From: Eledone cirrhosa
Taxonomy: Eukaryota
DNA: 64,000 nucleotides
NCBI GenBank assembly: GCA_964016885.1
Contig: CAXHJY010000589.1
Span: 62,001-126,000 of the forward strand
Direction: 5' to 3'
In this document: positions 12,844-58,613 of the stretch, piece after piece
Layout of the letters: each line of letters starts with the position of its first letter
Position numbering within the stretch: position 1 is the stretch's first letter
Notes under the pieces: generated by a model
Seen by the model: only the letters and a program-made list of their open reading frames with translations
What the model was told of the DNA's origin: nothing
Database searches by the model: none
Position numbers and translations under genes: made by a program

Positions 12844-12893
12844 GAGCTGTACTGATGAAGGGTGATACCCAGAAACATTAGTGTCCGCAGTTC
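12844..12893 (+). ncRNA. Type I hammerhead ribozyme (PLE-type)
   Basis: gagctgta CTGATGA a gggt-gat-accc a GAAA cattagtg TC cgcagttc. Helix I has 7 bp after one mismatch; GUC site; lies between (TA)n tracts. Confidence 0.8.
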
Positions 12894-13594
12894 TGTTCGC
12901 ATGCCAACACAAGAGCAAGAATGAAGTATTGATTCTACTGACATGGCTATAAAATTGAGGCTTGTTTGCATAATTGCAAACAAATCGAATGTTATTAATA
13001 TTCGAAAAACTCAGATTATATATATATATAATCTGTGGTGCTGAGAATGAGGAGACCACTAATCATGGGAGTACTCAATGCACAAGGAAACAGGTAAAAT
13101 TGCGACCACTTGGCGCTGCGGTCGAGATTCTCTTTCTCTAAAGTGATGTTAGAAGTGAATTTTGGTCTCGTAAAATGGACGCAAATATCGCTGTATGGTT
13201 AAAATGTTCACTTCACAACTAAATGGTTTCGGGTCTAATGCAGGTGAAATTTAGTAGACGGAAACTGTGTGAAAGCCTATCTGAGGAATCGTTCCTGTTT
13301 ATAACATAATTTTAATATCCATCATCTGGTTTAACACCACCAGGCTCTTCTATATGCTTAGTTGTAACCTTTTTCATGCAGCAAAACTAGGGGCAACTTA
13401 ATACATGATAATTCTCATATATATATATATTTTAATAAATATATATTATATATATATATATATATATAATGTAGGAGGTGAGTTTTATTGTAGTACAATA
13501 AAGCAATGCAGATATCGGATAAGAAGCACTCTACAGTTTGTGGGACTGGAGTATGCATAATATAAGATCAAAAGATGGTTAAAGGAGTTCCATA

Positions 13595-13665
13595 TATTTT
13601 ATTATGCGCATTTCAAAAACAAACATCATCATGCAATAATATTTGTGTTTTCATCAGATAAAATA
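13595..13665 (-). ncRNA. Type I hammerhead ribozyme, left arm of inverted repeat
   Basis: Reverse complement of the 13772-13842 copy. Confidence 0.82.
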
Positions 13666-13771
13666 GGAGAACATGATATGAAGGCTAAAAAACACTTGTG
13701 GATAGTGCAGTTATGTTGATTTAAAACTGCACTATCCACAAGTGTTTTTTAGCCTTCATATCATGTTCTCC

Positions 13772-13842
13772 TATTTTATCTGATGAAAACACAAATATTA
13801 TTGCATGATGATGTTTGTTTTTGAAATGCGCATAATAAAATA
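13772..13842 (+). ncRNA. Type I hammerhead ribozyme, right arm of inverted repeat
   Basis: tattttat CTGATGA [~36-nt helix II] GAAA tgcgca TA ataaaata; perfect 8-bp helix I, palindromic helix III ATGCGCAT. Confidence 0.85.
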
Positions 13843-14362
13843 TATGGAACTCCTTTAACCATCTTTTGATCTTATATTATATATATATATATATATATAT
13901 ATATATATATATATATATATATATCCGTATGTGGTTGACAGCTGAGAGAAAGGAGCAGTCAATATGTAAGTACAGTTTTAATATTCCTTTATATTAAGGT
14001 TTTAAAAGTATATATATATATATATATATATATATATATATATATATATATATATATATATATATATATATATATATATATATATATGTGTGTGTGTGGT
14101 GTAAAACAGAACAAAGAGGAGGCACAAAATAATAAAAGTAGTTACTGAAGAGGTCACAGAATATGTGACGAAAGAGCTTTGACAATTAACAACTAAACAA
14201 CCATCCGGTTTTTAAACTAACCGACGGAAAAAATTAGTTTCTTAACCAATAATCATAAATTGAAGTGTAACTCAACTGATACGTTTACTTTTATTAGCAG
14301 TGTATTACAATATATATATATTAAATCTTAACCATTTAACATCTTAGGGTATGTCATGTATC

Positions 14363-14425
14363 ATTATATTTTGTCTGATGAGGATGTACTGTTGTACCTC
14401 CGAAATATGTATAATAAAATGTAAT
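14363..14425 (+). ncRNA. Type I hammerhead ribozyme in a Penelope 3'-end fragment
   Basis: attatattttgt CTGATGA ggatgtac-tgtt-gtacctcc GAAA tatgta TA ataaaatgtaat; 12-bp helix I. About 150 nt upstream is a decayed GIY-YIG C-terminus (LTTKQPSG..N-stop, ~14187-14220). Confidence 0.9.
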
Positions 14426-54575: not shown

Positions 54576-57500
54576 CTGCCTTGTTTCATGGTGTTTGACT
54601 CTTTACATTCACCAGTTTAAATCTTTACGAAACTTTCATAAAATGACCAAATTTTATCCGAAATATTTAAGCTTATCAATCGTTAAATTTATTTTAATCA
54701 TATATCTATCATCTACTTTATCTACTTTGATTTCTCCAGTTTTCATTAACTATCAATTCTCATGGCAATAGTTAGGTTTCTTCATTATCAGATTCTAAAC
54801 AGATTATTTCGTTTTAGTAAACAAAATCAGAGTAATGGCATCCAAAATCCGATGTTTATATTTTGGTTTTACAATTGTAATGTGAACATCAAATTCAGTT
54901 ATAAAAACAGTAAAGGATACTGCCCAATATTTGAGTTCCTTGCTAAAGCTGAGAGCAACTATTGTTTACAATAAACATTCCACGTTATATACAGAAGAAT
55001 TATCTCCAGCCTACTTTCTAAGATTTTAAAAGAATAACGGTTACTTTCAACTAAACTATTAGATAATAATAGACTTCATGCATTTCTTCTTGAACTCATA
55101 CATTTAATTGAAAAAGAAAACACTACCAAAAACCACAGCTATTTCCTCATATTCCTCGCTCTTTAAAAGAGAAAATGCTATTCCTATTATCAAAGATATC
55201 CTTCTCAGAAAACGAAAAATTCGAAACTTTAAGCATGAATGATATATTTCATGTGTATTTGACATAATTACCACACTTTATTTAGATAGTTTGATTTATC
55301 TTAGTTTCGTTTCTTTCTCTTTCCATAAATTCTAATTGCAGGCATTAAATGGTCTTGCAATCTAAATGTTTGATTTTAACGATAACTGATCTATCATTTG
55401 TAGAACATCCGGTTCAGCATTTTAGAGAAAGAAATAAGTTTTTGGTAAACCAGATACGTAACCCAGTTAGTTTCAATCGTCAATTAAAACCATTTTACGT
55501 TGACTGTCATCGTTGATTCTCAGAAAAAGGCATAAACATCACACACTCTCATTACCCACCTCTAAAGACATTATAACATTGTGCCTATGTAAGAAATTAT
55601 TAATAAAACATGTTCTTATGTGAACGGACATGAAAACTTAGGAGACCAATTTTATAATGAATGAAATTCAAGTATGCTGATAGACGAAGACAGTTATAAT
55701 TGAAAGTCGTTGAGAGAGCATGTTACAAAGCTAACAACGTGAAGTTTAAGACATCTTTTTAAGCAAAAATATTTTGTAAGTGTTTTTATGGTGATTAAAA
55801 ATAAATTAACTTTTTTTTTTGTCTGAAACATTCTGGGTTTCACCTAATATTCGTTGTAGTCCAAAGAAGCAACAGGAAAAGACAGAAACTATAACTTTCT
55901 ACTAAATAGTAATATGAGAATAATATAGTTTGAAATTGATACAATAAGTATCAAATAATATGACATTCCTTCGAAGACACACTTAATCTCTACTGTAGAA
56001 GTGGATATGGGATAGTGTATAGAAAGGATTGGTTGAAGCATTTTAACAATTAATTCAACAAACGTCTAGAAAATATTGTATCAATGTCACAACATATCGT
56101 ATTTCCATATTTCTAATTCATGCTTTTATATGTACTAATATTACTAATATGTGTTCTGTGTTAATGGATGTTCTAAAAGTAGCTAACTAAAACCACTAGA
56201 CTTATGTTTTCTTCCGTCTACTCATTGACAAATTCCAATCAATCCAAATTCTTTTAGCGTCCGGTATTCAGTACACCAGGCGGCGTATTGGCATAGTCGT
56301 TAGAACGTCAGATAGAATGCTCTGAGTAGAGCAGATTTTTTTTTCCAGAAAAAAGATAAAAAGTGAGACAGAGATATAGGGGAAGAATCGACCCCAGTAC
56401 TAAACTGGTACTTTTTTTTATCGACCTCGAATGAATGAAAGACAAAGTTGACCTCGGCGGGATTTAAACACAGAACGTAAAGAACCATAATGTAAAGAGC
56501 CATAAAGCAATTTTATCCGACGTTCTAACGACTCTGCCAATTCGCCGCCCCCCTACAACATTAACAAATCTTCAGTCTATATTGACCCGTCATTTGATCT
56601 GACGTTTCTACATAAATCAACGCACATACCAGCTTCATTATCTAAAATATGTTGCTTCCGGAGAATCAGATGTTTTTATAAACGCATAACTGCATCAACC
56701 TATTGCGCCATTCTTCACGTTTTGTTCTTACTTTAGCACATTTCTAGCTTTAAGTGATAAAAGAATTTTTGTTGTTATTTAAATATATATAGATATATAC
56801 ATATATACTCACACACATATACGTATGTATATATATATATATATATATATACACACACGTAGATATATATATATACATATACACATATATACATATACAC
56901 ACACACACACACGTATATATATATATACACACACACACACACATATATACATACACACACACACACACATATATACATACACACACACACATATATACAT
57001 ACACACACACATATATACATACACACACACACATATATACATACACACACACATATATATATATATATATACATACACACACACATATATATATATATAT
57101 ATATATATACATACACACACGCACATATATATATATATACACACACGCACACACGCTCACACACATATATATATATATATATATATATATATATACACAC
57201 ACATATATTTTATGTGTTATTTCCTGTTTATAGTGGGCGGTGATAGGTGTTTCTTTTTATAACTTATAGAATGAAAAGAATCTTTTCGCGAAGAAATCCG
57301 TACTTTCTTATTACTATCTTATAGACGCCATTGTCTGTTTTATATCTCGCGATAAATCAGCCATATACATACGGTTATTTTATCGTTAGGTATAAAACAT
57401 GAAATAAATAGAATGTTTTTTTCAGGATTGGATTTACTACACTTTGGTGGGTGTGATGTTTTTTATTTTCTATCTAGAAATATATATATATAGGGTAGAT

Positions 57501-57585
57501 ATATATATACATATATATCTATGTCCCAATTCTCTAAAACCATCAACACCAAATACCTAGAGCTGGCATATCTAAGAACTTACTA

Positions 57586-57641
57586 ACTGCCTGATGAGGT
57601 CATAGCCATACAATGGCTATCATCGAAATATATATAGCGGT
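57586..57641 (+). ncRNA. Type I hammerhead ribozyme
   Basis: actgc CTGATGA ggtc atagccat-aca-atggctat catc GAAA tatata TA gcggt; palindromic helix III; between (TA)n tracts. Confidence 0.88.
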
Positions 57642-58282
57642 AAATAAAGGATTATGAGATCATACAATTGACTTATGTTTCGTCACTAGATATATATATA
57701 TATATATATATATATATATAGGAACAAGTAAGACCCCGACGGCTGAGCTCAAGCCGTTGGGGTCTTACTTGTTCCTATTACCCACTCTACTACCCTAAGT
57801 ATTGAGTACTTTGGTGCGTTATGGTCCACCTGGTTACTTACCACATTTCCTTCGTTATATATATATATATATATATATATATATATATATATATATATAT
57901 ATATATGTATATATATATATATATATATGTATATATATATATATGTATATATATATATATATATATATGTATATATATATATATATATATGTATATATAT
58001 ATATATATATATGTATATATATATATATATGTATATATATATATATATATATGTATATATATATATATATGTATATATATATATATATATATATATGTAT
58101 ATATATATATATATATATATATGTATATATATATATATATATATATATATATATATATATATATATATATATATATATATATATATATATATATGTAAAA
58201 GGTAAACAGAAAAAAACAACACAATCGGTACAGTATATGGAAGGTATATATTAGGTTAACGCTTGATATAGCAGGAAGAGGG

Positions 58283-58318
58283 TCTTAACGTTTCGGACGC
58301 TAGTCCTTAATCAGAAGA
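58283..58318 (-). ncRNA. Second copy of the 52641 minimal hammerhead with core mutation CTGATGA to CTGATTA (likely inactive)
   Basis: The surrounding 58195-58390 is nearly identical to 52553-52735; the substitution hits catalytic G8. Confidence 0.75.
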
Positions 58319-58553
58319 AAGAATGAGAAATAAAATAGATTAAGGGGACTGGCGGCATGGAATTGGAAAAAATGTCTTTAGATAAAAATAATATCCATTC
58401 ATGTTGACATCTCTTTGAAATATATATATATATATATATATATATATATATATAGTAATAATAATAAATTTGAAGACTAAAATCCAAAGAGCGCTCGATA
58501 AGGATAAATATATATCAAATATATAAGAACCCTAGAGCAAATCTAAATTTTTA

Positions 58554-58613
58554 TTCGTTCTGACGACTGAAGACATATAAATATCTGTCCTCAAGAAACC
58601 ACTGGTAAATGAA
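58554..58613 (+). ncRNA. Type I hammerhead ribozyme
   Basis: ttcgtt CTGACGA c tga a gaca...tgtc c tca a GAAA ccactgg TA aatgaa; GUA site. Confidence 0.78.

Follow-up and report, generated by a model that had tools for sequence, protein, structure and literature searches.

What kind of element carries the hammerhead ribozyme folds in a transporter gene of Eledone cirrhosa, and do these ribozymes cut? Twelve type I hammerhead folds had been annotated from the sequence alone in a stretch of 64,000 nucleotides (nt; assembly GCA_964016885.1, contig CAXHJY010000589.1, positions 62,001 to 126,000 of the forward strand), hereafter called the window, which also contains a gene of the SLC6/SNF transporter family. 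Sequence comparisons make it reasonably probable that the folds are the 3' ends of Penelope-like element (PLE) families and of retrozymes without an open reading frame (ORF), likely copied into (TA)n tracts by the Penelope reverse transcriptase (RT) and endonuclease, and that in one retrozyme family, designated family C, the RNA is likely cut in vivo by its ribozyme, giving many copies that begin at the site of cleavage. The elements are of kinds already described, at a locus that is in itself unremarkable; what gives the analysis its value is family C, together with a genome-wide motif density of about one per 10 kb.

Hammerhead folds as the ends of mobile elements

The type I layout was found at all twelve annotated sites. 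At ten of these (marked as intact in the table below) the core order CUGANGA, GAAA, UH was satisfied and all three helices were present; the remaining two carried one core lesion each. At 44230, U16.1 was changed to C, a position at which T was kept in 13 of 15 other family copies, and at 58283, G8 was changed to T (U), with G kept in 12/12 other family copies. In the copy at 12844 the first pair of stem I contains a C, whereas T is found there in 80 of 84 other family C copies. As annotated, the motifs fell into several distinct families: the twelve represent ten insertions of nine families, two motif pairs being the arms of fold-backs. Three extra variants were detected at 14141, 26580 and 61883, the first by a relaxed search descriptor (eleven window motifs in all) and the other two by hand. 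Two remnants had also been reported; that at 62224 was upheld as the 3' half of the layout only, whereas the CUGAAGA at 24785 was an artefact of a fold-back joint, since family J itself has CAGAAGA. In agreement with the proposed insertion at (TA)n tracts, (TA)5 was found 44-186 nt beyond the predicted cut in 11/11 window motifs.

Remnants of PLE pseudo-LTRs (pLTRs) and non-autonomous retrozyme-like elements had been offered as alternative sources of the folds; both hold, for different families, six being linked to PLEs and family C being a retrozyme. A search for parent PLEs behind the inserts was successful for six families, in that an endonuclease or RT was present upstream in longer copies of families A (window sites 13595/13772), D (25628), G (52993/53098), L (14141), J (24785/26580) and K (61883). 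The endonuclease was found upstream in 12 of 16 long copies of family A, in 10 of 15 matches of family D and in 4 of 30 copies of family G, for which an exact-pattern count of a 37-nt probe gave 5,173 exact genome copies. A Neptune/Nematis-type endonuclease was located upstream in 4 of 13 motif matches of family L, and family J was linked to an endonuclease/RT at one locus. Family K showed the arrangement within the window, with RT plus, at the C-terminal end, a GIY-YIG domain upstream of the ribozyme-bearing 3' end; that end carried a U3-A8 motif at 14/14 loci examined, the window included. Judged only by linker and endonuclease motifs, families A, D and J would be of the Hydra type and K, G and L of the Neptune or Nematis type; a first label of Nematis for A, D and J was dropped, as their linker motifs fit the Hydra clade. 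Family D is considered young, since 40/40 scored copies were identical over 216 nt (L141-L154, L365-L394), and 23 of 42 unselected copies reached >600 nt upstream of the cut; the family looks currently or very recently active. No parent PLE was found for families B, E, F, H and I, which were represented by short truncated copies only and for which no search was aimed at long copies.

Most copies were 5'-truncated 3' ends beside (TA)n, often with an inverted second arm and with a tail on one arm only. Exactly one arm bore the tail in all six family G fold-backs that were scored on both arms, and tail lengths ranged from 33 to ~90 nt across families. Copies in the window were 91-100% like dispersed members of their families, and three carried lesions. 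Sharp 5' ends recurred upstream of the predicted cut (position 0 for all end offsets, with + downstream and - upstream) in families A (~-125), G (~-73), J (-148) and N (~-40); these may mark pLTR transcription starts or stall sites. All 40 scored family A loci shared one fold-back joint, and the spacer could face either way with respect to the tail. A fixed palindrome, similar to a miniature inverted-repeat transposable element, was considered for family A and rejected: the query had selected for the joint, and unselected copies had other joints, the longer ones reaching the PLE ORF. The recurring 5' end near -125 explains the shared joint better, and a fold-back subfamily is also conceivable. 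At 58455-58708 an inverted family J tail directly abuts a family I body, TA being absent from the joint; this single chimeric case suggests that two different RNAs can serve one insertion.

Family C has a period of 437 nt, and its long copies pass from the 3' end straight into the unit start. There was no PLE ORF upstream in 16/16 matches, and the longest stop-free frame was 82 amino acids. A probe located 63 nt beyond the predicted cut had 1,201 exact matches, and ends were scored in the first 100 of these, which all came from a single contig. Seven of these 100 copies extended past one unit, with the 3' end joined to the unit start in the top matches; long arrays were not seen among the copies examined. 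Two complete motifs in tandem were observed only in part for family C (L224) and fully in two other ORF-less hammerhead units, one with a 522-nt period and two intact motifs and one with a 310-nt period and three motifs (L057:6463-7300, L110:8700-9700). The 3' ends of family C lay at +148 in 31 copies and at +181 in 23, which defines a 33-nt optional tail; TA was present within 8 nt of the 3' end in 56 copies, and an inverted arm of the same family at the 5' end in 53. By its structure, family C is a non-LTR retrozyme with a Penelope integration signature (33-nt tail, inverted arm, TA target). Other loci gave hints of units with periods close to 320, 412 and 465 nt.

Insertion 5' ends and the predicted cut

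The 5' ends of the 100 unselected family C copies were distributed unevenly around the predicted cut, with 25 at +20 or later, 29 in 0..+19, one at -2, none in -32..-3 and 45 further up. Among the 75 copies that reached past +20, the 29 ends in 0..+19 compared with 7.3 expected (P = 1e-9), and the empty interval -32..-3 with 6.8 expected (P = 0.001). Seven ends mapped to position 0 itself, where 0.3 were expected (P = 3e-8; background 0.0057 per nt). The ends became denser towards 0, with 4 in +20..29, 12 in +10..19 and 17 in 0..9, and in six further copies 5/6 lay in 0..+19. Similarly, 7 of 18 ends of the 522-nt ORF-less family lay at +5..+9. Family G showed a weak tendency, with five independent ends at -1..+4 among 100 listed matches; 31 of these matches, which had an intact core upstream, were counted as read-through, a row that lay at the edge of a locus was disregarded and a doubly counted fold-back joint was taken as one. 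Family A was left out of this comparison because its anchor sequence matched TA repeats.

Since cut RNA begins at position 0, its cDNA is expected to end at 0 or slightly short of it. Family C copies that begin at the predicted cut are the new point of this study, and they likely record self-cleavage of the RNA before reverse transcription. Target-primed reverse transcription would then start from two internal sites, on both target strands, as judged from another PLE (Frangieh 2024, PMC11167929), and two cDNAs joined by microhomology would give the fold-backs. Self-cleavage of family C RNA would produce the step in 5' ends, and the 45 of 100 copies with read-through would have been made from uncut multimers or circles. 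Overall, cutting would be strong in retrozymes and slight in autonomous PLE ends, and would not be needed for spread. A literature search, in which most papers were judged from their listings, brought up none on insertion 5' ends at a hammerhead cut and none on cephalopod hammerhead counts.

Several observations weigh against self-cleavage as the source of the step. Stem I of family C was predicted to extend over ~23 bp; an RT that stalled within the 3' strand of this helix would likewise leave ends in 0..+23. Five of the seven ends at 0 lay in microhomologies of 2-4 nt, the true position being possibly up to +4, and the lowest-energy fold of the motif hid the core. Families G, J and N had their sharp hot spots away from the cut, that of G being far larger than its cut-site group, so such spots arise by other means too. 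There was no step in families D (1/42), F (0/14), B (0/6), H (0/5) and L (1/11), nor in family J with its U4A core, and in long family C copies the upstream cut site appeared as a blurred edge only. A scan with the Rfam hammerhead models, whose failure had been named beforehand as counting against the folds, gave no match at E up to 10 in the window and two short stretches. Frangieh (2024) reported insertion in vitro that did not need cleavage, with no RNA ends at the cut, and Li (2026, 10.64898/2026.07.22.740005) reported cleavage in one of nine retrozyme dimers.

It is possible, though rather unlikely, that the same elements were copied by the Penelope machinery with no cutting of the template, and that the family C step reflects RT stalling in the long stem I together with favoured microhomology joints. 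The predicted helix does span +1 to ~+23; end density, however, rises towards 0 and not towards the base of the helix, and no ends lie at -4..-10, although the fold is predicted to go on there with a further helix of 7 bp. Palindromes of 6 nt at -1 and +13 gathered 10 and 11 ends, in favour of preferred joints, but only a single end was gathered by each of three other TGCA sites, and 0, 0, 2 and 4 were likewise the starts of joints in which no inverted arm took part. The hot spots of G, J and N, being unrelated to the cut, are in keeping with stalling, yet stem I of family G is only 5 bp and ends were still found at -1..+4. Also on the side of stalling is family J, which was present in 27 of 100 sampled genome stretches and has the core CAGAAGA instead of CUGAAGA, with A at position 4 in 35 of 36 copies and the stems intact; because so abundant a family has this change, an intact core is not needed to spread. 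Family J may be a dead ribozyme that spreads well or a tolerated core variant.

Position 0 of family C could also mark where transcription begins, or an end made by some other processing, its coincidence with the predicted cut being fortuitous. The fixed upstream 5' ends in A, G and J look like RNA starts, and promoters reside in PLE pLTRs (PMC6765202), but in a unit of 437 nt agreement to ~4 nt is not likely to arise by chance, and two other families showed comparable edges at the cut, making this explanation quite improbable beside self-cleavage.

Motif load, host gene and neighbouring repeats

The genomic background was sampled as 100 stretches of 10 kb (1.0 Mb; L027-L126), taken at round coordinates on large contigs, with small unplaced contigs left out. 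A strict and a relaxed descriptor were used. The relaxed version favours a palindromic helix III and was loosened only after the window motifs were known; the 1.0-Mb sample therefore served as the out-of-sample test. In the window, the strict descriptor gave 6 matches compared with 0.37-0.45 in shuffled sequence (200 shuffles for each of three block sizes), and the relaxed descriptor 11 compared with 0.08 (60 shuffles). The sample contained 101 relaxed motifs, against 1-4 in each of five shuffles, so the frequency was not matched by shuffled sequence, as the initial annotation had required of real folds. The density was ~1 per 10 kb (bootstrap interval 0.74-1.29 per 10 kb), which extrapolates to 2.2-3.9 x 10^5 motifs, roughly 300,000, in 3.0 Gb for this descriptor and large-contig sample. 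More than 20 ribozyme families were present in the genome.

The annotated variation of helices that nevertheless stay paired was confirmed in 36 sample motifs with a 4-bp stem I, found without requiring stems: there were 18 distinct stem I sequences with 4-6 pair types per position, and pairing across families occurred in only 14 of 306 combinations. A search for core and palindrome with no stem requirement gave 91 matches in the sample compared with 6-16 in shuffles. Palindromic or near-palindromic helix III was likewise the rule, with 54 perfect, 33 near and 14 hairpin forms among the 101 motifs; for motifs of this kind, cleavage as dimers has been proposed in the literature. (TA)5 lay within 300 nt downstream of 88 of 100 motifs, in comparison to 26% of random positions. 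Divergent pairs accounted for 36/101 motifs and the U3-A8 core for 17/101. A mismatch at the base of stem II was present in 35/101, in unrelated families (24 U.U, 6 C.A), and also in the window motifs at 12844, 53098, 58554 and 25628.

The host gene is of the proposed neurotransmitter-transporter family: six exon-bearing frames on the minus strand (2-169, 5190-5336, 18496-18660, 49651-49902, 51078-51401, 53560-53781) matched SNF (PF00209), and a seventh (18030-18134) was assigned by motif only. The first coding exon was not found in the window, and the motifs at 57586, 58283 and 58554 are therefore only probably intronic. Six of the intact single-arm motifs were antisense to the gene and one (52641) was sense; the remaining sense motifs were fold-back arms or had changed cores. 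As most motifs are antisense, and the sense ones lie in fold-backs, are damaged or have no partner, no effect on the host gene is expected.

A density of about one motif per 5 kb had been put forward as a feature of this gene, and it is very improbable that the motifs are kept in the intron to process or regulate the SLC6 transcript. The window did hold 11 motifs per 64 kb compared with a genome mean of 6.5, but this was not an enrichment over the genome samples (P = 0.13), the density being a genome-wide property; the strand bias, the likeness of the copies to dispersed members and their lesions also argue against such a role. Regulation is thus largely refuted already, and the intronic location is ordinary.

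Chance matches in AT-rich, repeat-rich DNA are scarcely credible as the source of the folds and were rejected on the sample-to-shuffle excess (25- to 100-fold) and stem I covariation, together with family-wide conservation and position in PLE ends, even though several motifs folded no better than shuffled sequence and the Rfam scan was negative. Given the clear outcome of the shuffle and covariation tests, that miss is read as a limitation of the Rfam models when motifs are minimal. The hammerhead folds of the window are real, yet they are ordinary debris of PLEs.

Features of the window, with positions counted from its first nucleotide.
Feature	Position	Strand	Details
Family C retrozyme copy, 5'-truncated, tail-less	12742..13018	+	Hammerhead 12844-12893 (intact), predicted cut after 12885
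Family A fold-back, 3' end of Hydra-type PLE	13470..13872	both arms	Tail ~90 nt (13470-13556) and two inverted arms
Family A hammerheads	13595-13665 (-), 13772-13842 (+)		One per fold-back arm (both intact)
Family L truncated end	14098..14299	+	Hammerhead 14141-14183; Neptune/Nematis-type
Family B truncated end	14315..14565	+	Hammerhead 14363-14425 (intact)
Family J fold-back with tail	24729..24940	both	CUGAAGA at 24785 from joint, no stem I
Family D 3' end, young Hydra-type PLE	25194..25780	+	Hammerhead 25628-25744 (intact), 83-nt stem II
Family J copy	26466..26720	-	Hammerhead-like fold 26580-26630, family-wide core CAGAAGA (U4A)
Family E truncated end	44202..44358	+	Hammerhead 44230-44317, U16.1 to C
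Family F truncated end	52556..52740	-	Minimal hammerhead 52641-52676 (intact), helix III ACGU
Family G fold-back, 3' end of Neptune/Nematis-type PLE	52832..53255	both	Tail on left arm
Family G hammerheads	52993-53031 (-), 53098-53136 (+)		One per fold-back arm (both intact)
Family H truncated end	57520..57690	+	Hammerhead 57586-57641 (intact)
Family N fold-back remnant	57721..57855	both	3' part of U3-A8 hammerhead family
Second family F copy	58195..58420	-	Hammerhead 58283-58318, G8 to U
Inverted family J tail (58455-58542) and truncated family I end	58455..58708	+	Hammerhead 58554-58613 (intact)
Family N fold-back remnant	58725..58889	both	GAAA, helix III and cut triplet, without CUGANGA side
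Family K broken, 5'-truncated Neptune/Nematis-type PLE	58938..62160	+	RT 59617-60663, GIY-YIG 60981-61469
Family K U3-A8 hammerhead variant	61883-61924	+	Weak stem I
3' half of hammerhead layout	62221..62240	+	No 5' half
Host SLC6/SNF transporter gene	2..53781	-	Exon-bearing frames, PF00209

Other repeats were recorded in the window. A degenerate PLE end at 19297-20260 has a GIY-YIG-like frame and relatives in L083 and L090, and the descriptor finds no hammerhead in it. At 25098-25193, immediately ahead of the family D copy, lies the 3' end of a further family, which is dispersed and was met in 10 of 100 sample stretches; it has CUGACGA without a downstream GAAA. A decayed relative of family F that has lost the core lies at 44400-44510 (minus strand). 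A dispersed GC-rich repeat common to 8017, 30148 and 41915 contains CUGAGGA but no hammerhead fold. A SINE-like repeat of ~190 nt that is very abundant and has ATTATT-type target sites (for example 4133-4508, 11700-11870, 32610-32840) is also present inside family C copies elsewhere, and a tandem array at 34502-36380 consists of 80-81-nt units of SINE-like origin. Further tandem arrays are found at 531-956 (60-nt x7), 3435-3828 (56-nt x7), 37082-41043 (37-nt x107) and 44596-45013 (19-nt x22). A sequence of ~440 nt occurs twice, in opposite orientation and 10 kb apart, at 1490-1930 and 12000-12440.

Comparison with known systems

The motifs resemble the pLTR hammerheads of PLEs (Cervera and de la Pena 2014, PMC4209133) in the type I fold, the short or palindromic helix III, the extra base at the start of stem II, the U3-A8 core variant, the many families, the predominance of single motifs of truncated PLEs and the opposite-strand pairs 100-700 bp apart. 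Minimal motif counts given there are ~2,000 for Schistosoma, ~4,000 for coelacanth and ~9,000 for Xenopus; the 2.2-3.9 x 10^5 estimated here lies far above these, each count depending on its own descriptor. Other published counts, again with other descriptors, give >6,000 motifs for a coral and as many as 120,000 for axolotl. The mismatch at the base of stem II, mostly U.U, and the family-wide U4A change were seen here and not met in the accessible parts of that paper.

Like metazoan non-LTR retrozymes (Cervera 2020, PMC7229834; Li 2026), family C combines a type I hammerhead with a unit of 300-500 nt that has no ORF, and occurs as head-to-tail partial tandems and dispersed monomers. Circular RNA has been demonstrated for those retrozymes, whereas family C is known from DNA. 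In these papers, mobilisation of retrozymes by PLEs was proposed on the grounds that the ribozyme is shared, that the two co-occur and that there is similarity to pLTRs; in both, the agent moving animal retrozymes is still a matter of proposal. Here, in contrast, the integration signature itself (3' ends 33 nt apart, inverted arm, TA target) was seen, along with the 5' step.

Among the PLE clades of Craig et al. (2021, PMC8557442), families D and J match the Hydra clade in the C-terminal GIY-YIG and the CxCX5C linker with CxxC and CxH, of which family A shows the CxxC and CxH part; families K and L match Neptune/Nematis in the CX2-5CxxC linker and two cysteines between GIY and YIG. The 5' truncation, inverted arm, tail at one end and (TA)n target are shared with the endonuclease-positive PLEs of that study, in which tails are 30-40 bp as opposed to 33 to ~90 nt here, and in which the role of the hammerhead in PLEs is stated to be unclear. 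The Poseidon PAc element in vitro (Frangieh 2024) is similar in that two internal RT start sites define an optional tail and both target strands are cut and extended. The PAc hammerhead is protein-assisted and dispensable for insertion, with no RNA ends at the cut, whereas here the genomic 5' ends of an ORF-less family gather at the predicted cut.

In R2 elements, the RNA that serves as template for DNA synthesis has its 5' end fixed by the cut of an HDV-like (hepatitis delta virus-like) ribozyme. That cut frees the full element, whereas a cut template of family C would yield only a stub of 148-181 nt. The ribozyme and the element class also differ from those of R2 (PMC6765202).

A little better than an even chance is given to the combined claim that ~300,000 motifs are the densest load among the published counts compared and that ORF-less retrozymes keep in their DNA both the Penelope integration signature and a nucleotide-level footprint of cleavage. 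If true, this would amount to direct evidence for the mobilisation of animal retrozymes by Penelope enzymes and for cutting by hammerheads in the germline. Cut RNA would give dead stubs, and uncut multimers or circles full units. Both questions, the role of the hammerhead in PLEs and the partner of the retrozymes, can be tested directly in family C, in which insertions begin at a specified cut site and 3' ends of Penelope type occur without an ORF, and natural controls are at hand in the same genome in family D with its identical copies, the abundant, changed-core family J and the many other ribozyme families. The 5' ends of insertions would then provide a genome-only assay of active ribozyme families and of their core variants.

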